Positions 2,319-26,165 of a stretch of 64,000 nucleotides of DNA are shown here, piece after piece. Source of the stretch: Polyangiales bacterium (GTDB lineage Bacteria; Myxococcota_A; Polyangia; Polyangiales; Polyangiaceae); contig JBBRLQ010000005.1 of NCBI GenBank assembly GCA_038231275.1, positions 64,001 through 128,000 on the forward strand. Direction: 5' to 3'. The first letter of the stretch is position 1. Each line of letters begins with the position of its first letter. A model generated the notes under the pieces. It was given only the letters and a program-made list of their open reading frames with translations, had not been told where the DNA came from and did no database searches. The position numbers and the translations under genes were made by a program.

Positions 2319-3722
2319 TCAGCGGACGTGCTTCTTCGCCATGTTGAGCGCTTCGTCGACCATGAGCTGCTGCTCGCCCGCGTCCTCCCAGCGACGCTGA
2401 ATGACCGTCGAGAGCTGGTGGAGCGGATCGAAGTAGAGGAAGAACTGCCCCGGCTTCACGCTCGGCGCCGTGTAGACGCTGATGCCCGTCTCGCGGTTGT
2501 AATACTCGTACGAGTGCGCGTCGCGCTTGCCGCCGCCGCCTGGCGCGTCGACGACGAACGTGGGCGTGTTGAAGCCGGCGGTGCTGCCGCGTACGTGTTT
2601 TTCCAGGTAAATCGCGGTGTCGACGGTGGTGCGGAGATCCTCGACGCCCTTCACGAGATCGTGCACGTAGACGTAGTACGGGTGCACGTTGACGTGGCCG
2701 AGGCGCTTCACGAGGAGCGTCATCACCTCCGGCGTGTCGTTCACGCCGCGCTGGAGCACGCTCTGGTTTCGCACGGTGATGCCGCGCTCCATGAGCTTGT
2801 CGAGGCCGCGCTCGGTGTGGCTCGTGATCTCATTGGGGTGGTTGAAGTGCGTGTGGAGGACGACCTCCTTGTGCATCTTGCGCCCCTTCTCGACGATGCC
2901 GGTGAGCGCGTCGACCCACGGATCGTCGGTGAGGAGCTTCTGCGGCATGACCGCGGGCCCCTTGCTGGCGAAGCGCATGCGGCGGACGTTCGGCATGGCC
3001 AGCAGCGCCTCGCCGATCTCGGTCAAGTGGCTCGCGCGGAGCTGGTACGCGTCGCCGCCGGAGATGACGATGTCGGCGAGCTCGGGGCGCGAGGCGATGT
3101 AGTTGAACGCGCGCTTCCACCGGTCGTCGTTGGGTCGGAGGTGGACCTTCTCGACCTCCTCGGTGTCGAGCCCGATCGCGTAGCTGCGCGTGCAGAAGCG
3201 GCAGTAGACGGGGCACGTGTCGAGCGGCAGAAAGAGCGCCTTGTCGGGGTAGCGGTGGGTGAGGCCCGGCACCGGCGCGTCCTCTTGCTCGTGAAGCGAG
3301 TCGAGGTTCAGCTTCGGGTGATCGCCGAGGAGGCGCGACGCGAGCGGGAAGAACTGGATGCGCAGCGGATCGGTGTACGGGTTCTCCCAATCGATGAGCG
3401 AGCAGAGGTACGGGCTCACGCGAACGCTCATCGGCGATTTCTTGATGCCGAGCTCGGTGTCTTTGATGAAATCGGCGGGGACGAGATCCTTCACCGTCGC
3501 AAGCAGCTTCTCGATCTTCGTGATCGAGTTCTTCGCCTGCCAGTTGTGATCGAGGAACTGCTCTTCGCTCACGTCCTTGTACGCGGGGATCTTCTTCCAC
3601 CACTCGCCGGAACGCAGGTCCTTGTAGGCGAGCGTGGCCGGATCGGCCGGCGGCTTCTTCGCGACGATCGGCTCGTCCTGGATGACCCGGAGGGTGGTGG
3701 GCGGCGTCTGCTGGACGGTCAT
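2319..3722 (-). CDS. KamA family radical SAM enzyme (lysine 2,3-aminomutase-like)
   Basis: CPVYCRFC radical SAM motif, 'HRYPDKALF', 'SGGDA', 'THFNHPNE', 'NQSVLQRGVND' and PLP-lysine motif 'DAPGGGGK'. Start taken at MTVQQ. Confidence 0.92.
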   Translation of the reverse strand: MTVQQTPPTTLRVIQDEPIVAKKPPADPATLAYKDLRSGEWWKKIPAYKDVSEEQFLDHNWQAKNSITKIEKLLATVKDLVPADFIKDTELGIKKSPMSVRVSPYLCSLIDWENPYTDPLRIQFFPLASRLLGDHPKLNLDSLHEQEDAPVPGLTHRYPDKALFLPLDTCPVYCRFCTRSYAIGLDTEEVEKVHLRPNDDRWKRAFNYIASRPELADIVISGGDAYQLRASHLTEIGEALLAMPNVRRMRFASKGPAVMPQKLLTDDPWVDALTGIVEKGRKMHKEVVLHTHFNHPNEITSHTERGLDKLMERGITVRNQSVLQRGVNDTPEVMTLLVKRLGHVNVHPYYVYVHDLVKGVEDLRTTVDTAIYLEKHVRGSTAGFNTPTFVVDAPGGGGKRDAHSYEYYNRETGISVYTAPSVKPGQFFLYFDPLHQLSTVIQRRWEDAGEQQLMVDEALNMAKKHVR

Positions 3723-3786
3723 GATTTCTGCCTTTTCCCACGGCGTCGCGGGCAGCGCAATCGTAGCGCTTCTGGCCGACTCTCGC

Positions 3787-18541: not shown

Positions 18542-20986
18542 CTATTTTTTCGAGGGATCGTTGGGGTCGGAGTCGACGTCGTCGGCCGCGCCGTCGTCGT
18601 CGGCGTCGCGCACCGGCGGCTTGAATCCGGTGACGACTGGCGCCTTGCCGGCGAACGCGTCGGCGAAGAAGCGCGTCGCCATGCTCTGGAGCTCTCGGTA
18701 CGGGCAGCTCACGTAGTAACCGTCGGAGAGGCGAGCGAACGGATCCCGGCGGCCGTCGGTGCTGCCGTACGGCACCGCGTAGCCGCGCTTGCCGCGCTTG
18801 CGAACGGCGTCGTAGCCGTGCTGACCGGGCGACGCTTGGACGACCACCGCGGTGACGCCGGGGACCGGAGTGTCGTGAATGCCCGTGGCGTCCGGCGCGA
18901 CGTCGAGGAGCGGGACGCGCTGCGTGTTGTTTGCCATCGTCTTGATGTCGACGATGCCGGCGTTCGAGCCGACGTTCGGAAGGGCGAGCCCCATCCCCGC
19001 CGCGCGCGCGAGCGCTTCGCCGCCTTCGTTCGCGACGAGCTCGTCGTAAATGACCTCGGTCACGACGATGTTGCGAGGTGACGTTGGCGCGCCCTTGAGC
19101 GGGTGCGGGCGAAGGACGAGGTTCGGCGCGTAGTCGAGTGGATCTCCCGGATCGGCGATCGTCTGCCCGATGACGTTGAGCGGATGCGACTCGTCGAAGC
19201 GCTCGGGGCCGAAGCGGAAGTTGAACGTCGCCGCCGCGCCGAGGAGCGCGCCGATGCCGGGGCCGTGCGCGGCGATCTCGGAGAAGAGCCCGCCGCCCGC
19301 GACGTTCAAGAACCACGCGCGCACGTGCGGCTCGATCGCGGCGGCCGTCGCGCCGGTGATGCCCCCGAACGAGTCGCCGAAGTAGGCGATCTTGTCGCCG
19401 TCGAACTTGGGGACGCCGGCGCCGGTGTCGAGCGGCGAGAGGTCCGGCGCGCTGCGAAGCAGCCGAACGAGCTGCGCGAGGTCGAAGCCCTGCTCGCGAA
19501 GCTGATCGCGGAGGGCCCCCATGTTCTTCAGGTTGCCGAAGAAGTCGACGGGGCCGTTCTCGTCGTCGGCGAGCCCGTCGGGGCCGGCGTACGCCGCGCC
19601 GTTCTTCCCGGCGTACGCGGTCCCTTTGTCGAGCTGGAATTTGGCCTCGGGCGCGCGCGCGCCGAAGGTCACGCCGTCGATCGCCGCCACCGCCCAGCCC
19701 ATCTTCGCCCACGTGTTCCCCATGTCGAGGAGGTACGCGCGCGAGCTCGAGAGGCCGTGCCCGACGATGACGACCGGATATCCGGCGGGCGGCATCGGTG
19801 CCGTCGGGATCGCGATCGTCACCCAGATTTTCGTCGTCGGCGCGTCGGCGGGGAGCGTGGGCTTGCCGCTCGCGTCGATCGCGATCGTGCCGTGATCCAT
19901 CGTGTCGTAGCCGCCGGGTCGGGTCTGAAGGTAATTCTGCGCGGCGAAGACGGCGGTGCCGAGTGCCGAGATCTTGTCGTGCGCGCGCACCGGGAGCTCG
20001 GCGTCGGGATCGTCGGTACCGTCCGGGAGCTTCGCGCTCGCGGCGACCACGCCGAGCCAATCGTCGAGGGATGCGGTGAAGCCGGCCGGCAGCGCGCCGC
20101 TCCCCTTCGCCGCGAAGCGCGCCGCACCCATCGGCGCGACCGTCGCCGCGTCCCACGCGAGGCGTGGCGTCGGCGCGTCCTCGAGCGCGTCACGCATCGC
20201 GTAGAGCGGCTCGGTCATCTTCTGCGTCGTGTACGGCGCGATCGCGACGATCTCCGCGTCCCCGAGCGCGCCCGCGAGCGCCGCGCGCGCCTTGGCGATC
20301 GCGTCGGCGTACATCCCCCGCGCCGCCGTTCCCCGATCGCCGCCCGCGACCGCGCGAAAGTCCGACGATGCGCCGAGCTTCCGTCCTTTGTCGTCCTTCA
20401 CGCGGCTGGTCACGACCGCCGCGTACGCGTGCCCCTCCTCCAAGAGCACTCCACGCGCAGGACCCACCGCGAGCACCGGCCGCGACGTCGCCCGCGCCCG
20501 ATCGTCGTGGAACGCCGCGCGGCACGGTACGCGCGTCTTGGCAGGATCGGCCGCCGCGAGGTCGAGAAAGAACACCGCGCTCCCGTCCGCGACGCAGTCC
20601 GCCTCCGTCTTCGGCAGCGTCGCCGCGTCGAGCGTCGCGGGCATCGGATCGCCGTTGTCGTCGGAGCCCGCCGCGAGATCGTCGATCACGAAGAGGGAAA
20701 GGGCGACCCGCGAGAACCCGTTCGCCTTGCCGAGCTCATGGGACAAAAAGGGCGCGTTGCTCGTGAACCATTTGTCGAGACCCGGGAGCGGGTCCGCGAT
20801 TTTTCCGCCCGTGAGGTAAGCGTCCGACGGGAACGGAACGTCGAGGAACGGCGGCATGTCCGCGACGAGCGAGAACCGCGCGACGACACCGGGCGGCGTC
20901 GTTTTCGTCGACGAGCACGCTGCTCCGAGCGCCGTGACGAGCACGAGCGAACCGAACGCCGGCGCGCGAAGGGAGGTCCAGCGCAT
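18542..20986 (-). CDS. Large alpha/beta-hydrolase lipoprotein (Pla-1/Cef lipase-like)
   Basis: Lipobox 'LGAAC', 'VIVGHGL', nucleophile elbow 'YFGDSFGG', C-terminal Ca-binding-like 'DADDDGAADDVDSDPNDP'. Confidence 0.78.
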   Translation of the reverse strand: MRWTSLRAPAFGSLVLVTALGAACSSTKTTPPGVVARFSLVADMPPFLDVPFPSDAYLTGGKIADPLPGLDKWFTSNAPFLSHELGKANGFSRVALSLFVIDDLAAGSDDNGDPMPATLDAATLPKTEADCVADGSAVFFLDLAAADPAKTRVPCRAAFHDDRARATSRPVLAVGPARGVLLEEGHAYAAVVTSRVKDDKGRKLGASSDFRAVAGGDRGTAARGMYADAIAKARAALAGALGDAEIVAIAPYTTQKMTEPLYAMRDALEDAPTPRLAWDAATVAPMGAARFAAKGSGALPAGFTASLDDWLGVVAASAKLPDGTDDPDAELPVRAHDKISALGTAVFAAQNYLQTRPGGYDTMDHGTIAIDASGKPTLPADAPTTKIWVTIAIPTAPMPPAGYPVVIVGHGLSSSRAYLLDMGNTWAKMGWAVAAIDGVTFGARAPEAKFQLDKGTAYAGKNGAAYAGPDGLADDENGPVDFFGNLKNMGALRDQLREQGFDLAQLVRLLRSAPDLSPLDTGAGVPKFDGDKIAYFGDSFGGITGATAAAIEPHVRAWFLNVAGGGLFSEIAAHGPGIGALLGAAATFNFRFGPERFDESHPLNVIGQTIADPGDPLDYAPNLVLRPHPLKGAPTSPRNIVVTEVIYDELVANEGGEALARAAGMGLALPNVGSNAGIVDIKTMANNTQRVPLLDVAPDATGIHDTPVPGVTAVVVQASPGQHGYDAVRKRGKRGYAVPYGSTDGRRDPFARLSDGYYVSCPYRELQSMATRFFADAFAGKAPVVTGFKPPVRDADDDGAADDVDSDPNDPSKK

Positions 20987-21114
20987 CCACTACCCCTAGC
21001 AAATGTTCGCCGCGCCAGCGGGAAAGGCGTGGCTCGCCCCGCGCAGATCAGGTAAGAAGGCCCTGCGATTTGGCTTGGTTTGTCGGGATTTTCTTGAGCC
21101 GGTAGGAGGCAGTC

Positions 21115-21672
21115 ATGACACGAGTCGGTCAGTGGATCATGGTGGGATCGATTTCGATGTCGCTGGCGGGCGGGTTCGCCGTCGGCTGCGGCAGCACCAC
21201 GACGGACAACCCCGTCGTCGACGCGGGTGGGGACACGTCGGCCGACGTGACGCTCGATCAAGGCGCGCAGGACACCGGCGCCGACGTGAAGGACAGCGGC
21301 GTCGCCTGCGTCGAGGACTCGAGCATCGCGACCCTCTCGCCGCCCGACGCCGCGATCGCCGACGGCGCGAGCAGCGTCGGCATCTGCCTCGGCTGCATCA
21401 AGGGCAACTGCGACACCGAGCTCAACGCATGCGCCGCGGACTGCGTGTGCAACAACGCCGTCGAGGGCATCATCGGCTGCGTCCTCACCGGCACGGCGAT
21501 CACGACGTGCGGGGCGCCGCTCGCCGGCTTGACCGGCAACTCCCAGCTCCTCGGGCTCTCGCTGGGCCAGTGCCTCATCGGCAACTGCCGCGCAGAGTGC
21601 GCGCCGAACATCGACGCTGGCCAGACGGACAGCGCCTCCGACGCGCCGGCCGACGCGCCCGACGCCGGCTGA
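21115..21672 (+). CDS. Cys-rich lipoprotein
   Basis: AGGAGG RBS, lipobox 'AVGC', about a dozen Cys, DAG-rich linkers typical of myxobacterial surface proteins. Confidence 0.75.
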   Translation: MTRVGQWIMVGSISMSLAGGFAVGCGSTTTDNPVVDAGGDTSADVTLDQGAQDTGADVKDSGVACVEDSSIATLSPPDAAIADGASSVGICLGCIKGNCDTELNACAADCVCNNAVEGIIGCVLTGTAITTCGAPLAGLTGNSQLLGLSLGQCLIGNCRAECAPNIDAGQTDSASDAPADAPDAG

Positions 21673-21687
21673 CAGGCTCAGCGCACT

Positions 21688-22464
21688 CTACGCGGCCGGA
21701 CGGAGGAACGCGCGGCGCCGCTCGCGCCACGCGTACCCCGCCGGCAGTCCCAGCGCCTCGAGGCCCGGGACGATGACCTCGATCACGGTCGAGTAGAAGA
21801 GATCGCGCGCGTCGCGGCCGTTGCAGAGGCCGAGGCACGCGCCTTCCTTCGGCGGCGCGGCCGCCGGGTTCAGGTGGGCGAGCTCGTGCTGCTCGAGGTG
21901 CAGGAGCGCAACCTTCAAGTACTCGCCGACACGCGCGAGCGCGGCGCCATCGAGCTGCGATGCGAGCCGACCCGCGAGGCGCCATCCGAAGCGCGCGTGC
22001 CCGACCTCGTCGGCGTAGATCGTCGTGAGCAGCTCGCGCAGCGGCCCTTCCGGCATCTCGAGCCGCTCGGCGCCGATGAGCGCAACCGCGACGGTCTCGC
22101 TCAAGCACGAGATGCTGAGCAGGTTTCGCAGCGCCGCTTCGATGCGCGAGGCGTCGGAGTGCTCGGGCACTTCTTCGAGCGGGGGCGCCTCGAACGTCGC
22201 CTCGCCGCCCAGGGCCTCGACGACTGCGCCGCAGAGGACGCCGTGACGACGCTCCTCGCCCGCGAAGCCGCGGCACTCGGCGACGATCTCCGGCTCGAGG
22301 CCGGCGTCCTCGAGCTGGCGCGCCAGCCCTTCGAAGACGCGCGCGGACGTGTGCTCATTGAGCATGCGCCCACGCCACGTCGCCAACGCAGCCTCCGCGA
22401 GGTGTGGAAGCACCGGTAGGGAGGGCGCGTGGCGACGGGCCTGGACTCTAAGATCGACAATCAT
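21688..22464 (-). CDS. Ferritin-like diiron carboxylate protein
   Basis: E...ExxH...E...ExxH pattern: 'MLNEHTS', 'GEERRH', 'CLSETVA', 'ADEVGHARFGW'; GGAG RBS before ATG at 22464. Confidence 0.85.
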   Translation of the reverse strand: MIVDLRVQARRHAPSLPVLPHLAEAALATWRGRMLNEHTSARVFEGLARQLEDAGLEPEIVAECRGFAGEERRHGVLCGAVVEALGGEATFEAPPLEEVPEHSDASRIEAALRNLLSISCLSETVAVALIGAERLEMPEGPLRELLTTIYADEVGHARFGWRLAGRLASQLDGAALARVGEYLKVALLHLEQHELAHLNPAAAPPKEGACLGLCNGRDARDLFYSTVIEVIVPGLEALGLPAGYAWRERRRAFLRPAA

Positions 22465-22487
22465 GGCAAGCTCCGACGAAAGAACGT

Positions 22488-22949
22488 TCAGGCGAGGAGA
22501 GCGGGCATGGCCGGCGGAACGGGCGGGCCCCACGGCGTGCACGTCCCCGCCGCGGCCCAGCCGATCGCTTCGCAGCACTGGGTGCGCTCGGGCCACGAGA
22601 ACGTCTGCGCCTTGTCGGCGTCCTTCGCGAGGACGGTGCAGCAGGCGCGCGTGAGCACGTCGACGCGCGTATCCGGTTTGTCCGACGGATGCGGATCCTT
22701 CGGGAACGACGCGCTCGCGACCTCGTCCTCGCAGCACTGCTTCTCGGTCTCGCCAGCGTGGTGCTTCGCGCAATAGCTCGCGACGGTCGTCCTGCGCGCC
22801 ACGCTCAGATCGTCGGCGCTCGTGTCCGCAGGGGCGGCGTTCGGATCGGCCGGCGTCTCGACGGTCGCGCCGCCGCAGCCCACCAGCACCGCCGAGAACG
22901 CCAGCTTGGCGGCCGCACGCAGCGCCGCCCGATGAATCTCCGGAGTCAT
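22488..22949 (-). CDS. Cys-rich lipopeptide with three CC doublets and C-terminal CTPWGPPVPP
   Basis: 153 aa, lipobox 'VLVGC', QCCE/ACCT/QCCE; 23 bp upstream of the ferritin-like gene. Confidence 0.75.
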   Translation of the reverse strand: MTPEIHRAALRAAAKLAFSAVLVGCGGATVETPADPNAAPADTSADDLSVARRTTVASYCAKHHAGETEKQCCEDEVASASFPKDPHPSDKPDTRVDVLTRACCTVLAKDADKAQTFSWPERTQCCEAIGWAAAGTCTPWGPPVPPAMPALLA

Positions 22950-23038
22950 TTGTCCCGTCCCCTTTTCGCCGCGCACACCGCGACCACCACCCTTCTAGCG
23001 CACGGGACCGTACGAACAATCATTATGACGTGGATTGT

Positions 23039-23061
23039 ATTGTATGCCCGAACGATACAAT
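23039..23061. promoter_or_regulatory. Inverted repeat / LysR-type T-N11-A box
   Basis: ATTGTAT-N9-ATACAAT perfect inverted repeat in an AT-rich gap between lysR and the lipopeptide gene. Confidence 0.6.
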
Positions 23062-23074
23062 CGTGTCGCGCGCG

Positions 23075-23968
23075 TCAGCGGAGCGGGTTCTTCGTCATCG
23101 TGCGAGCGAAAGCCTCGTAGATGACGCGCCGCGGATCGTCGGCGCGGAAGACGAGGCGGAAGAAGTCGTGCGTGGGGACGACCGACGGGAACACCCTCTT
23201 GAAGGCCCCGCCCTTGAGCTCACGCCGAACGAGGTACGCCGGCAGCACCGCCACGCCGACGCCCGCCGCGACGCGCTGGCGGATCGCCTCGATCGTCCCG
23301 AAGCGCACGATGCGCCCGAACCGCAGCCGATCGCCGCCCGACGGCGCGTCGCGCCAATACCGGTAGAGGGCGAGATCGGCGTCGATGTCCACGAGCGTGT
23401 GCTCCGCGGCGTGCTCGACGCGTGTGAGCGGCCGCTCGCGCAGGAGCTTGGCGGAGCCGACGAAGACGTAGTCCTCGCGGTGCATGCGGATGCTCTCGAG
23501 CTTCGGATCGGTGAAGCGCGACGAGGTGACGGCGCAGTCGATCTCCATCGTGCGCACGCGGAGCAGTAGATCGGAGCCCGAGCCGAAGTAGAGGTGCAGC
23601 TGCAGCTGCGGCTGCTCGCGCGTGAGGAGGTCGAGCTGCGGGAGGATCCACGAGAGGCCGAGCTCGTGGCGCGTGCCGAGGACGATGTCCATCGAGCCGG
23701 GGGCCGTCTCGCCGCCGCCCGCGCGCCCGCACTCTGCCGCGTAATGCAGCGCCTTTTCGGCGGATGGAAGCATCGCGAGCCCCGCCGCCGTCAGCCGAAC
23801 GCTCCGCGTCGTCCGCGCGAAGAGGACGATGCCGAGCTGACCCTCGAGCTGTTTGATGCGCTGCCCGAACGCGGCGGGCGTCAGCGCAACGTCGCGCGCC
23901 GCCGCCCGGAAGCTGAGGAGCTTGGCGGCCGCGACGAAGCAGCGGAGCGACTCGATCGGCGGCAGCAT
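23075..23968 (-). CDS. LysR family transcriptional regulator
   Basis: 'SFRAAARDVALTPAAFGQRIKQLEGQLGIVLFARTTRSVRLTAAG'. Confidence 0.93.
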   Translation of the reverse strand: MLPPIESLRCFVAAAKLLSFRAAARDVALTPAAFGQRIKQLEGQLGIVLFARTTRSVRLTAAGLAMLPSAEKALHYAAECGRAGGGETAPGSMDIVLGTRHELGLSWILPQLDLLTREQPQLQLHLYFGSGSDLLLRVRTMEIDCAVTSSRFTDPKLESIRMHREDYVFVGSAKLLRERPLTRVEHAAEHTLVDIDADLALYRYWRDAPSGGDRLRFGRIVRFGTIEAIRQRVAAGVGVAVLPAYLVRRELKGGAFKRVFPSVVPTHDFFRLVFRADDPRRVIYEAFARTMTKNPLR

Positions 23969-23978
23969 GAAGGAGGCC

Positions 23979-26102
23979 TCACTTCGCGGCGGTCACCGGC
24001 GACGGCGGCTTTACGCCGACGCTTTCCAATACCTCCCTCGCCGGAAACACGACGCCGCCGCGCATCGTGGAGACGACGTTGCGAACGTCCCCGATGCGCG
24101 CGAGCGGATCGCCGTCGACGACCACGAGGTCGGCGTCCTTGCCCACCGCGATCGAGCCGCTCTTTTTGTCTCGCCTCATCTCGCGCGCCGGCACGATCGT
24201 CGCGCTGCGCAGCGCTTCGGCGGGCGAGAGGCCCGCGTGCACGAAGAGCTCGAGCTCGCGATGGAGCGACAGGCCCGCGAGCGCGTCGGTCCCTGCCACG
24301 ACCGTCACCTTCGCGTCGCGCAGCGCCTTCACCGTCGCGATGACGTGCTCCCACGACTCCTGGCGCGCTTGCTCCTTGCCCTCGGGGATCGGCAGCCCTC
24401 CCATCAAGAAGTAGCGCTGCGTCTGAACCGGCAAGCGCGCGACGAGCCACTCGCTGCCCGGCGTGATCTTGCCGGGCACGCCGCCGAGTGTCGATTCGAA
24501 GGCGACGAGCGTCGGGTCGATGACCGTCTTCTTCTCACGGAGGAGCGCGAAGAAGTCCTGCACGGGCTTCCCCTTCAGGTCCACCGTCGTCGCCTTGTCG
24601 GCCACGATCGAAAAGCGCGCGGTGGTGCGCGTGTCGGTCTCGTGATCGGCGAGAAAGTTGAGGAACACCATGTTGATGTGCTCGATGCCGTCGTAGCCGG
24701 CGCGCACCGCCTCGTTCGCGAGCATGTGGACCGGGATGTGCCCGATGACCTGCATGCTGCGCGCGTGCGCCTCCTTCGCGAGGATCGGGACGAGCTCGGG
24801 CTTGATCGAGTTGTAGATCTTGATCCCCTCGTACCCGCGCTTGGAGAAGAACTCGACCGCCGCCTTCGCTTCGGCCTCGGTCTCGGCGGTCACCGTCGAC
24901 GACGCCGCCTTCTCGCCGCGCCCCTCGATGAAACCGAAGCGGAGGAGGCGCGGCCCCACCGCGGTCCCATCGTCGTAGCGCTTCTTCCAGTCGTCCAGCT
25001 TGTCGGGATCGTTGCCGACGTCGCGCGCGGTGGTGACGCCGGAGCCTATGTTCAGCGCGCCATCCGGATCGCCGACGTGCGCATGCATGTCCCAGAGCCC
25101 TGGGAGCAGGGCTTTTCCGGCGAGGTCCACGATCTCGGCACCGGCGGGCGGCTTGGCAGCAGCCGAGGGGCCGATCGAAAGGATCGCTCCCCTCGCGACG
25201 ACGACGGTCTGATCTGTGAGCCACGCGCCCTTCTCGACATCCAAGACGCGCGCGTGGACGTACGCCAGCCCCGCGGCCGGCGGGAGATGGGCCGTCGCCT
25301 TCGCGACCTTCACGTCCCGTTCCTTGTCGATCTGGTTTTGGCGCTGCTGGAGCGGCTCGATGACGCTCTCCCATCCCTCGGGAACCAGGGAAAACCAGGG
25401 CGATACGACGCCGAACCACGTTCCGTCGTCGTTCATCCAGATGTACTGCGGGATGAGCTCGAGGCCGCGGATCGCGTAGTTGGTGAGGTGCCGCTCCTCG
25501 GCGCCGACCTTGACCGTCGCGTCGCCGACCTTCTCGACGCGCGCGGTGCCCGAGGGCAAGACCGGGATCGTGCCGCCGGCCTTGAGGGCGGCCTGGGCAA
25601 GCAGGCCGAACGCGGACTGGACCTCCGCGATGGGGACGAAGAAGGCGGGCCCCGTCACCTCGCGGTCGCCGGACTCCTCGTGGCTCTTCCAGCGTGCGCG
25701 TGTCCCCTCGCGCGTGAACGTTTCGTCGGCGGCGGTGCCGAACTCGTGGTGCCCATGCGCATCGAGCGACGCGATTGTCCCGTCCGGCGCGAGCTTCAGC
25801 GTGGACTCGACGTGCGCGCCCCGGCCGTTCTGCATGACGTCGAAGACTTCGTGGAGCGTGCCGTCCGGGTCGCGCACTGTGGTGCACGTTCCGGACTTGC
25901 GCGAGAGCGAGACGACGATGCGCTTGCTCGTGATCGGCGTCGCGGATCCCGCCGCGCTGGCGGTCGGGGACATGCCGGTCCCGCTCGGGATCGTCGTCGG
26001 CGTTGGCGTGATCGGAGGCGGGCCCTCACCCCCGCACGACGCCGCGCCGAGCGCGGTGGTGACAGCCAGGACGAGCACGAGCGAGGCGGCCTTGGTGCGC
26101 AT
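23979..26102 (-). CDS. Secreted amidohydrolase family lipoprotein
   Basis: 'LLPGLWDMHAH', 'IKIY', 'GIEH', 'AGTDA', 'GSIAVGKDADLVVVDGDP'; lipobox 'AASC'. Confidence 0.88.
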   Translation of the reverse strand: MRTKAASLVLVLAVTTALGAASCGGEGPPPITPTPTTIPSGTGMSPTASAAGSATPITSKRIVVSLSRKSGTCTTVRDPDGTLHEVFDVMQNGRGAHVESTLKLAPDGTIASLDAHGHHEFGTAADETFTREGTRARWKSHEESGDREVTGPAFFVPIAEVQSAFGLLAQAALKAGGTIPVLPSGTARVEKVGDATVKVGAEERHLTNYAIRGLELIPQYIWMNDDGTWFGVVSPWFSLVPEGWESVIEPLQQRQNQIDKERDVKVAKATAHLPPAAGLAYVHARVLDVEKGAWLTDQTVVVARGAILSIGPSAAAKPPAGAEIVDLAGKALLPGLWDMHAHVGDPDGALNIGSGVTTARDVGNDPDKLDDWKKRYDDGTAVGPRLLRFGFIEGRGEKAASSTVTAETEAEAKAAVEFFSKRGYEGIKIYNSIKPELVPILAKEAHARSMQVIGHIPVHMLANEAVRAGYDGIEHINMVFLNFLADHETDTRTTARFSIVADKATTVDLKGKPVQDFFALLREKKTVIDPTLVAFESTLGGVPGKITPGSEWLVARLPVQTQRYFLMGGLPIPEGKEQARQESWEHVIATVKALRDAKVTVVAGTDALAGLSLHRELELFVHAGLSPAEALRSATIVPAREMRRDKKSGSIAVGKDADLVVVDGDPLARIGDVRNVVSTMRGGVVFPAREVLESVGVKPPSPVTAAK

Positions 26103-26165
26103 GCGCGGCAGCATACCCGAGACGCGAGGAGCCGCCGCGCCGCCGCGCGAGACCGTGCGCCCGCG

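Follow-up and report, generated by a model that had tools for sequence, protein, structure and literature searches.

What do a small Cys-rich protein with a lipoprotein-like N-terminus and the ferritin-like protein encoded next to it do together? This question is raised by a gene pair in a 64,000-nucleotide stretch of contig JBBRLQ010000005.1 (positions 64,001 to 128,000 of the forward strand) from a Polyangiales bacterium. This whole 64-kb stretch is referred to as the window, and its G+C content is 69.3%. The pair comprises the genes for P0002 (Cys-rich protein) and P0001 (ferritin-like diiron-carboxylate protein) and lies beside a lysR gene. The explanation that we favor, and to which we give about an even chance when taken as a whole, is that P0001 and P0002 are a dedicated enzyme-substrate pair, in which P0001 would oxidatively modify a short motif near the C-terminus of P0002 in the cytoplasm ahead of export. 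The features of the locus are listed below. A preliminary description of this DNA had named the lysR gene, the inverted repeats, the 153-aa gene, the 23-bp gap, and the 258-aa gene, and all these parts were found where it had placed them.

23075..23968, minus strand: lysR, encoding P0003, a LysR-family transcriptional regulator of 297 amino acids (aa), identified by its Pfam domains
22995..23061, minus strand: part of the spacer between lysR and the P0002 gene with inverted repeats and conserved cis-regulatory boxes, found by repeat scan and upstream alignment
22488..22949, minus strand: gene of P0002, a Cys-rich lipoprotein-like protein of 153 aa (ATG at 22949, stop at 22488)
22875..22949, minus strand: codons 1-25 of P0002, signal-peptide-like N-terminus MTPEIHRAALRAAAKLAFSAVLVGC with an A-L-R-A-A-A-K core and the lipobox Cys
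22506..22541, minus strand: codons 137-148 of P0002, tail motif CTPWGPPVPPAM, family consensus C-T-P-W-G-P-P-x-P-P-x-M
22465..22487, minus strand: intergenic gap of 23 bp between the P0002 and P0001 genes, with GGAG 9 bp ahead of the ATG
21688..22464, minus strand: gene of P0001, a ferritin-like diiron-carboxylate protein of 258 aa from an uncurated family, without signal peptide

The three genes thus share the minus strand, and lysR has the same orientation as the pair and is not divergent from it. For P0002, the ATG at 22949 was preferred over an upstream GTG at 22976 because the close homologs all begin at the same MTPE.

Pairing of the two genes across genomes

A scan of one genome per species returned 275 pattern matches, 170 of which encode a relative of P0001. 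The best 80 of these 170 loci were fetched with their flanks and analyzed. They come from Polyangiaceae, Labilitrichaceae, Nannocystaceae, Kofleriaceae, one Bradymonadia bin, and a few bins labeled as other phyla. The bins L013, L019, L034, L035, L036, L049, and L072 are labeled Proteobacteria, Alphaproteobacteria, Enterobacteriaceae, or Cognaticolwellia, and their enzyme genes nest among myxobacterial rows. These odd labels probably reflect old naming or mis-binning, not gene transfer.

An open reading frame (ORF) with the tail motif (motif ORF) adjoins the gene of the P0001 relative (enzyme gene) in 77 of the 80 loci. Two of the other three loci (L034 and L061) have no upstream DNA on the contig, and L080 is the only evaluable exception. 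In L080, a sigma-70/extracytoplasmic function (ECF)-like ORF (2514-3734, plus strand) lies directly upstream of the enzyme gene in place of the motif ORF. The motif ORF and the enzyme gene are a near-obligate module in Polyangia, far beyond chance. The co-occurrence expected by the preliminary description was therefore found, and so was the conservation of the PWGPP tail: none of the 78 motif ORFs lacks W, G, P, P, or the P two positions further on.

The motif has the consensus C-x-P-W-G-P-P-x-P-P-x-M. With C as position 0, C, W, G, P5, P6, and P8 occur in 78/78 motif ORFs, T in 63, P2 in 69, P9 in 74, and M in 54 (otherwise L or F). The regular expression used in the motif-ORF search required C..WGP[PA], so that only P6 (P in all cases), P8, P9, and position 11 are free observations. 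In P0002, the segment CTPWGPPVPP corresponds to residues 137-146 and is followed by AMPALLA. It was described before as terminal, but is near-terminal, seven residues from the C-terminus. In the related loci, 1 to 27 non-conserved residues lie past the motif. Conservation in this largely variable protein is highest in the motif and also covers the Cys-Cys (CC) pairs and the N-terminal region. The full motif occurs once in the window, where the other loose six-frame matches (two WGPP and one C..WGP) are without the rest of it.

Three arrangements were observed. The motif ORF is separate and upstream in 63/77 loci (two of them with a second copy downstream), fused in frame with the enzyme with no stop between them in 10/77, and only downstream in 4/77. 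When the 80 enzyme domains were placed in a maximum-likelihood tree, the downstream-only order formed a single clade (support 100/99), and the fused or separate state required 8 changes, at least 5 of which are forced by well-supported branches. In the sister loci L040 (6763-7203) and L049 (6247-6714), an extra, diverged motif ORF (CMAWGPPRPPAV) lies directly downstream of the enzyme gene, and one enzyme may therefore serve two substrates.

Where the two genes are separate, they are tightly coupled. At 51 of 59 junctions, the start of the enzyme frame overlaps the stop of the motif ORF (GTGA in 33, ATGA in 12, and TGATG in 6 cases), and the remaining 8 junctions, including that of the window, have a gap. 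Programmed frameshifting at the junction was considered and rejected, as the constant relative frame (53/59) is explained by ordinary stop/start overlap.

A signal-like N-terminus, a Trp and polyproline segment 1 to 27 codons from the stop, and a next gene that starts at this stop are also what a SecM-like arrest peptide would present. Here, W-G-P-P-x-P-P would stall the ribosome near the stop and tune downstream translation by export status, and the conservation at the amino-acid level would fit this as well. However, the order is reversed in the 4-locus clade, where the motif ORF comes last, and the 10 fused loci have no stop codon. Moreover, the ORF encodes a conserved domain that is predicted to fold confidently, the downstream gene encodes a ferritin-like protein and not export machinery, and the motif is modeled as a specific ligand of this downstream protein (see below). 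We consider an arrest peptide very improbable.

The fused forms keep the lipoprotein-like N-terminus, none of them has RR directly ahead of the A-L-R core, and two come from the cultured isolates Polyangium jinanense and Enhygromyxa salina. Among the 150 best representatives of an exhaustive profile search, 34 were 329-474 aa long with the enzyme domain at the C-terminus (our own count from the result table, in which cluster representatives are possibly biased toward the longest member). Seven long representatives were inspected. Five of these have a lipoprotein-like N-terminus, four of them together with the motif. In P0165, the motif is present and the N-terminus is cut. P0201 (474 aa) has a lipoprotein-like start and a variant junction motif without Trp (C-N-A-G-S-G-G-P-L-A-P-P-P-I-P-P). 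P0305 (336 aa), a distant sister-group protein, has neither the lipoprotein-like N-terminus nor the motif; it consists of a short Cys-rich start without signal peptide, a proline-containing segment, and a distant ferritin-like domain. P0305 and P0201 could be divergent forms or artifacts of ORF calling.

The two proteins and their predicted complex

The AlphaFold2 model of P0001 (alignment of 44 sequences) is all-helical, with a mean predicted local distance difference test (pLDDT) value of 95.8 and a predicted template-modeling (TM) score of 0.91. When this model was compared with PDB structures by Foldseek, the top match was the cyanobacterial aldehyde-deformylating oxygenase (ADO) 5ux2_B (E 3.6e-4, TM 0.54/0.62), and a second ADO structure, 6jzu_B, reached TM 0.59/0.68. 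The next matches were PaaA, ribonucleotide reductase (RNR) R2/NrdF, and the desaturase of stearoyl-acyl carrier protein (ACP). All matches had 13-18% identity and 5 had E ≤0.001. The four-helix-bundle core is like that of the solved ferritin-like diiron members. In the model, E37 is located on helix 20-53, E71xxH74 on helix 58-84, E123 on helix 107-136, and E153xxH156 on helix 141-168, which is the canonical diiron-carboxylate arrangement (E/ExxH/E/ExxH).

These six putative metal ligands are invariant in 80/80 loci and intact in 118 of 119 close database matches of P0001. The sole deviant is P0005, a metagenomic homolog with 79% identity that carries E71Q and E153D and may be a decaying copy. 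Further invariant residues (80/80 loci) are C78, four residues after H74, as well as E133 and C214, and C120, three residues before E123, is present in 79/80. A third ExxH at 194-197 is family-specific. The N-terminus of P0001 is not hydrophobic, with a best Kyte-Doolittle value of 1.3 for an 11-residue window in the first 40 aa, compared to 2.1 in P0002. As initially described, P0001 has the complete ligand set and no signal peptide.

No Pfam or NCBIfam model matched P0001, and the Pfam result was empty even at E 10, including Ald_deCOase and AurF (PF11583). The best match of its profile among PDB sequences had E 1.1. Its ESM Atlas neighbors are unnamed Myxococcota clusters, a minority of which carry Rubrerythrin, Ald_deCOase, AurF, or FA_desaturase_2 tags, and relatives of P0001 gave sub-threshold Pfam matches to AurF, Ferritin_2, and Rubrerythrin. 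Judged by its ligand pattern and predicted fold, P0001 is a member of the ferritin-like diiron superfamily from an uncurated family; from the same evidence, we infer its metal content and O2-activating catalysis.

The family is large, with at least 1,681 clusters (90% identity) at E ≤1e-3 among 8,000 candidates scored. In the exhaustive profile search, 2,260 representatives (50% identity) matched P0001, 142 of them at E ≤1e-30. A sister group of ~280-295 aa (12 sequences: P0219, P0222, P0225, P0236, P0237, P0239, P0244, P0249, P0253, P0259, P0274, and P0287) has retained all six ligands together with the two adjacent Cys, and the 194-197 ExxH and C214 are mostly missing. Its members have another N-terminal extension of ~45 aa, without signal peptide, and no fused lipoprotein part. 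One of them, P0237, matched Pfam AurF with 23.2 bits, below the cut-off of 29.6.

P0002 is composed of an N-terminal region with the lipobox, a disordered acidic linker, a helical domain of ~85 aa with three CC pairs, and the tail motif. Its Cys residues are at positions 25, 60, 72, 73, 103, 104, 125, 126, and 137, that is, 8 after the lipobox LVGC (22-25), and the CC pairs are QCCE at 71, ACCT at 102, and QCCE at 124, as previously reported. In the AlphaFold2 model (38 sequences), pLDDT was <50 for residues 1-52 (N-terminus and linker), 85-94 for residues 55-140 (four short helices with the CC pairs), and 53-63 for the tail (residues 141-153). No Pfam or NCBIfam family was found for P0002. 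The best PDB fold match of its model had E 2.7 (Foldseek), and the sole match of its profile among PDB sequences was the signal region of lipoprotein LpqN, which was weak (E 0.025). The N-terminus gave a sub-threshold match to the NCBIfam "lipo-invert" anchoring domain (E 0.023, 15 versus a cut-off of 37 bits). The best ESM Atlas score was 0.78, which we treat as a lead only, and a word-index search for longer relatives returned 2 matches, of 414 and 436 aa; for fused forms, the exhaustive profile search was more productive.

P0002 has 41 homologs that were found. In an alignment of the family, A9, A14, and C25 are invariant, and L10, R11, A12, A13, and A17 are conserved in at least 90%. The conserved N-region reads x-A-L-R-A-A-A-K-[VL]-A and ends with a small residue and Cys; in each of the 76 full-length N-termini of the family, this region closes with [G/A/S/P]-Cys. 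The lipobox is preceded by basic residues (R7, R11, and K15 in P0002), and the linker behind it is variable, acidic, low-complexity, and rich in Ser, Thr, Pro, and Gly. With this build, P0002 resembles a tethered lipoprotein that would be lipidated at Cys25, and its export is likely, although not certain. A Tat (twin-arginine translocation) signal, with hitch-hiking of a signal-less partner, was rejected, as RR-x-x-hydrophobic was found in only 14/76 N-termini and the P0002 of the window has HRAALR.

If P0002 were not exported, its N-terminus would be an amphipathic or hydrophobic helix, and the Cys-rich domain could bind metal or an iron-sulfur cluster and act as electron donor or metallochaperone of P0001. 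Fusion of such a donor to its diiron enzyme is frequent, with rubrerythrin and rubredoxin-AlkB pairs as examples. With a cytoplasmic P0002, the topology conflict posed by the fusions would disappear. The short hydrophobic (h-)region of only 9 residues, an N-terminal (n-)region conserved beyond that of usual signal peptides, and the failure of 50/76 N-termini in a PROSITE-type lipobox rule also favor it. So does the number of Cys after the lipobox, which ranges from 4 to 10 across the family and is often odd (raw count); after our own correction for lipoboxes misplaced by the script, the modes are 8, 7, and 6, and even parity, or simple disulfide pairing, is therefore not enforced. In contrast, all 76 N-termini combine a hydrophobic run, a small residue, and Cys, followed by a variable acidic low-complexity linker as in lipoprotein tethers. 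In addition, Pfam, NCBIfam, and Foldseek gave no match to a ferredoxin- or rubredoxin-like family or fold, and the modeled interface with P0001 involves the tail motif only and not the Cys-rich domain. We regard a cytoplasmic partner as improbable.

The complex was predicted once, with controls and without metals, from the alignment of the enzyme and that of P0002 (residues 56-153). The complex score was 0.64 (0.80, 0.48, and 0.64 in three runs), whereas the best control reached 0.01. In a benchmark, this score mark was reached by 58/80 solved complexes and by 2/110 mismatched pairs. The runs agreed in at least 53% of contacts, and the pLDDT of the partner was at least 45 (46-68). The confident interface on P0002 was limited to residues 137-149, i.e., the motif plus one residue. 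On the enzyme, it comprised residues 35-37, 71, 74, 122-123, 153, and 156, which cover all six putative ligands, as well as residues 113-119, 126, 129-130, 185-189, 193, and 197-198, of which H193 and H197 are family-specific. The model supports binding of the motif by P0001, in a cleft lined by the putative ligands. Searches of the PDB by sequence and fold found no solved complex of the relatives of either protein, and a score derived from a memorized structure is therefore unlikely. Mutual information between motif positions and enzyme columns (76 pairs, no phylogenetic correction) had its top scores on high-entropy columns and was set aside as uninformative.

A large and confident modeled interface would also be expected if the proteins formed a stable, non-catalytic complex. 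The motif would then be a docking peptide, lid, or plug that tethers P0001 to the lipoprotein, and P0001 would act on another, small substrate at the membrane or surface. Such tethering would be in line with the start/stop overlap at 51/59 junctions, with the 10 natural fusions from at least 5 independent events, and with the pairing being kept in the clade with flipped gene order; the nearest solved folds (ADO, acyl-ACP desaturase, and PaaA) bind lipids or acyl chains. However, the separate diiron protein of 67/77 loci has no export signal and cannot join an exported lipoprotein, and the Tat hitch-hiker route is unsupported by the N-termini, as described above. Furthermore, a motif positioned on the metal ligands, as in the model, would block other substrates. 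We consider a stable complex rather unlikely.

LysR, the upstream region, and neighboring genes

P0003 matched Pfam HTH_1 (E 4e-18) and LysR_substrate (E 4.8e-27). Its best NCBIfam match was GcvA-type, with 128 bits, below the cut-off of 288. In 29/80 loci, the module has a LysR homolog next to it, in four arrangements: upstream on the same strand (21), upstream divergent (2), downstream on the same strand (5), and downstream on the opposite strand (1). A thirtieth match is a distant homolog far from the module. On the enzyme tree, LysR adjacency changes 22 times. The link between LysR and the module is real but loose; the "LysR-controlled cassette" of the preliminary description overstates it, given adjacency in 29/80 loci and the four arrangements.

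The spacer between lysR and the P0002 gene is 125 bp long and unusually AT-rich for this DNA. It was said to contain an inverted repeat, and two were found. The first, ATTGTAT-N9-ATACAAT (23039-23045 and 23055-23061; box 1), has 7-nt arms that are 100% complementary and contains T-N11-A. The second, ACAATC-N11-GATTGT (23016-23021 and 23033-23038; box 2), has a GATTGT arm that, in minus-strand reading, corresponds to CTGATTGTC at other loci in the alignment. CGCTAGA at 22995-23001, again in minus-strand reading, is box 3. Over 22 upstream regions, which were picked from 77 because related elements had already been seen there, the three aligned boxes are ATTGTA-N11-ATAC, ATCAT-n-CTGATTGTC, and CGCTA(G/C)A. 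Loose regular expressions matched box 1 in 11/77 and box 2 in 15/77 upstream regions, counts obtained with no chance control. The three boxes also occur at loci without an adjacent LysR gene. In their layout, the boxes are reminiscent of a LysR recognition site with an activation site behind it, the latter overlapping a putative weak -35 element. Where it is adjacent, LysR probably controls the pair via the T-N11-A box region. Consensus scans of 21500-24100 found no sigma-70 promoter and no terminator, and there was no Rfam match at E ≤1 in 21000-24500.

Next to lysR, a 711-aa amidohydrolase-family protein is encoded at 23979-26114 (minus strand; Amidohydro_1, E 2.1e-23). Its gene ends 10 bp ahead of the lysR start and may be co-transcribed with lysR. 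On the other side, a 185-aa ORF (21115-21672, plus strand) is convergent with the P0001 gene, with a stop-to-stop distance of 16 bp. It has a lipoprotein-like N-terminus (..FAVGC) and >10 Cys, no Pfam or NCBIfam match, and no counterpart in the 80 related loci (0/80). Farther along, an 814-aa protein with a lipoprotein-like N-terminus (18542-20986, minus strand) gave a sub-threshold match to VolA/Pla-1 phospholipase (NCBIfam E 4.2e-18, 65 versus a cut-off of 384 bits). Like the 185-aa ORF, the amidohydrolase, the phospholipase-like protein, and a 316-aa ORF of the window were each found in 0/80 loci, and a TetR in 2/80. PADLOC returned no match for P0001, P0002, and P0003.

When the ORFs of the 80 loci were clustered all against all, the clusters obtained besides that of the enzyme (and of its antisense frame) were LysR (32 loci) and Ser/Thr kinases at varying positions (28 loci). 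The kinases were treated as abundant paralogs and rejected as part of the module. In L009, L014, L016, L020, L025, L027, and L041, an ORF of ~500 aa without Pfam match (e.g., 3732-5255 in L009) precedes LysR or the module, with a gene for an SLT-domain transglycosylase still farther out on the opposite strand. This looks like local synteny within one clade, outside the module.

Possible function and relation to known systems

In the favored explanation, P0001 would belong to a new family of ferritin-like diiron enzymes, activate oxygen in the cytoplasm, and recognize only the short C-terminal motif of its partner, C-x-P-W-G-P-P-x-P-P-x-M. The motif would be threaded into the cleft above the two-metal site and oxidatively modified, most likely at Cys137 and/or Trp140, which are the chemically obvious candidates, or at a neighboring Pro. 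Only after this modification would P0002 be exported and lipidated via the lipoprotein pathway. Both proteins would be produced in a 1:1 ratio, and P0001 may act a single time on each substrate. As the separate enzyme has no export signal (67/77 loci) and its partner appears to be exported, the two would meet only in the cytoplasm. A near-invariant motif that provides the sole modeled contact, on never-varying ligands of an oxygenase-type fold, is most simply read as the substrate. That catalysis takes place, which residue is modified, and that modification precedes export is what we infer from these data.

Several observations weigh against this explanation, and the fusions are the main unexplained point, being awkward for a simple scheme of modification followed by export. 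At 10/77 loci, a single polypeptide carries both the lipoprotein-like N-terminus and the enzyme domain, and in 6 of these 10 fusions, the 10 codons ahead of the enzyme domain include no ATG, GTG, or TTG. In the latter, export would require unfolding of the enzyme domain, unless this domain is cut off or left behind, and ORF clustering of the 80 loci revealed no protease gene conserved near the module. One-to-one translational coupling, as seen at the 51/59 junctions, is commoner among the subunits of a complex than between an enzyme and its substrate. The signal peptide is also unusual, with an uncharged h-region of 9 residues before Cys25 and a highly conserved n-region; a PROSITE-type lipobox rule was passed by 26/76 N-termini and missed by P0002 by one residue. 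The motif docking is a metal-free prediction in which the partner's own fold is uncertain (pLDDT 46-68). Finally, residues 131-140 of P0002, including Cys137 and Trp140, had pLDDT ~85 in the monomer model, and the start of the motif may belong to the folded domain and not to a free tail. A single-turnover, expendable enzyme would fit both the coupling and the fusions, neither of which the preliminary description had anticipated.

The general logic of the preliminary description, a cytoplasmic iron enzyme that tailors an exported peptide, has experimental precedent in the MNIO class (PMC13056109). According to this source, the DAG-RiPPs have lipobox-bearing precursors, including proteins of >30 kDa, that are recognized via a minimal C-terminal CPxCGxG by the signal-less MNIOs ChrH and DybH, are modified in the cytoplasm, and then enter the lipoprotein pathway. 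Whole proteins can be substrates, and Myxococcota are among the hosts (PMC13056109). These precursors carry a lipoprotein signal in which the lipobox Cys is invariant, a variable N-terminal body, and a short Cys motif near the C-terminus (PMC13056109), a build that P0002 resembles with its lipoprotein-like N-terminus. A neighboring signal-less iron enzyme recognizes the C-terminal motif, which for P0001 and P0002 is predicted from the model. In contrast to the MNIOs, which are TIM-barrel proteins (DUF692), P0001 is predicted to be a ferritin-like four-helix-bundle diiron protein, and no MNIO/DUF692 match was found for it or its window neighbors in Pfam and NCBIfam. Instead of CPxCGxG, the motif of the P0002 family is C-T-P-W-G-P-P-x-P-P-x-M. 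Here, moreover, the two genes show translational coupling or fusion, and our evidence is modeled docking.

The oxazolins, where HvfBC modifies HvfA, a protein with a Sec signal (PMC11252979), and the bufferins (PMC11626156) are also Cys-containing Sec-signal proteins or peptides that are modified by cytoplasmic non-heme iron enzymes before secretion, as we propose for P0002. In these systems, an MNIO acts with a DUF2063/RRE partner on repeated Cys motifs, and the products bind copper. In contrast, P0002 and P0001 have no such partner protein, the motif is present in a single copy, and nothing points to copper. Nor does anything in our analysis point to the metal chelation that had been suggested for the product.

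With ADO, PaaA, RNR R2/NrdF, acyl-ACP desaturase, and AurF, P0001 has in common the predicted fold (Foldseek E 3.6e-4 to 4e-2, TM 0.5-0.68) and the E/ExxH/E/ExxH pattern. Compared to the ADO-type oxygenases, it has in addition C78, C120, E133, the ExxH at 194-197, and C214, and in the model its substrate is the tail of a protein instead of a small molecule. The borosin OphMA is a fusion of enzyme and substrate, and R2lox, CADD, and the tyrosyl radical of RNR R2 are parallels for self-modifying diiron proteins. In borosins, the core peptide follows the methyltransferase, and the self-modifying diiron proteins act on their own residues and not on a partner's tail. In the fusions described here, by contrast, the proposed substrate precedes the enzyme and has an export-signal-like N-terminus. 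In a full-text search of the literature outside subscription journals, no paper turned up that deals with the motif, with the pairing, or with ribosomal peptides as substrates of a ferritin-like enzyme. That iron enzymes tailor lipoproteins before export is known, and the enzyme class and the architecture would be new.

A bolder form of this explanation, which we think unlikely as a whole, is that P0001 represents the first ferritin-like diiron family that modifies a ribosomal protein, once per molecule, on a co-translated or fused partner. At C-x-P-W, a Cys-Trp crosslink or a Trp-derived quinone would be formed, for which cysteine tryptophylquinone and tryptathionine are chemical parallels. 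The product would be a lipid-anchored surface protein with a built-in redox cofactor, widespread in Polyangia, and the fused enzyme domain would be a disposable, self-consumed maturation module.

The module would be easy to test, as it offers two genes, a recognition motif of 12 residues, and natural fusions, and a modification could be read out clearly by mass spectrometry. Probably, a surface protein is chemically tailored here in a way that is new. If the favored explanation is true, the ferritin-like diiron proteins would be a second, structurally unrelated class of iron enzymes that tailor exported proteins before secretion, which has so far been shown for MNIO TIM-barrels. The reaction space of diiron-carboxylate proteins would become wider, with a short, portable tag recognized by an oxygenase, and a conserved, unannotated module of soil and sediment bacteria would gain a function.

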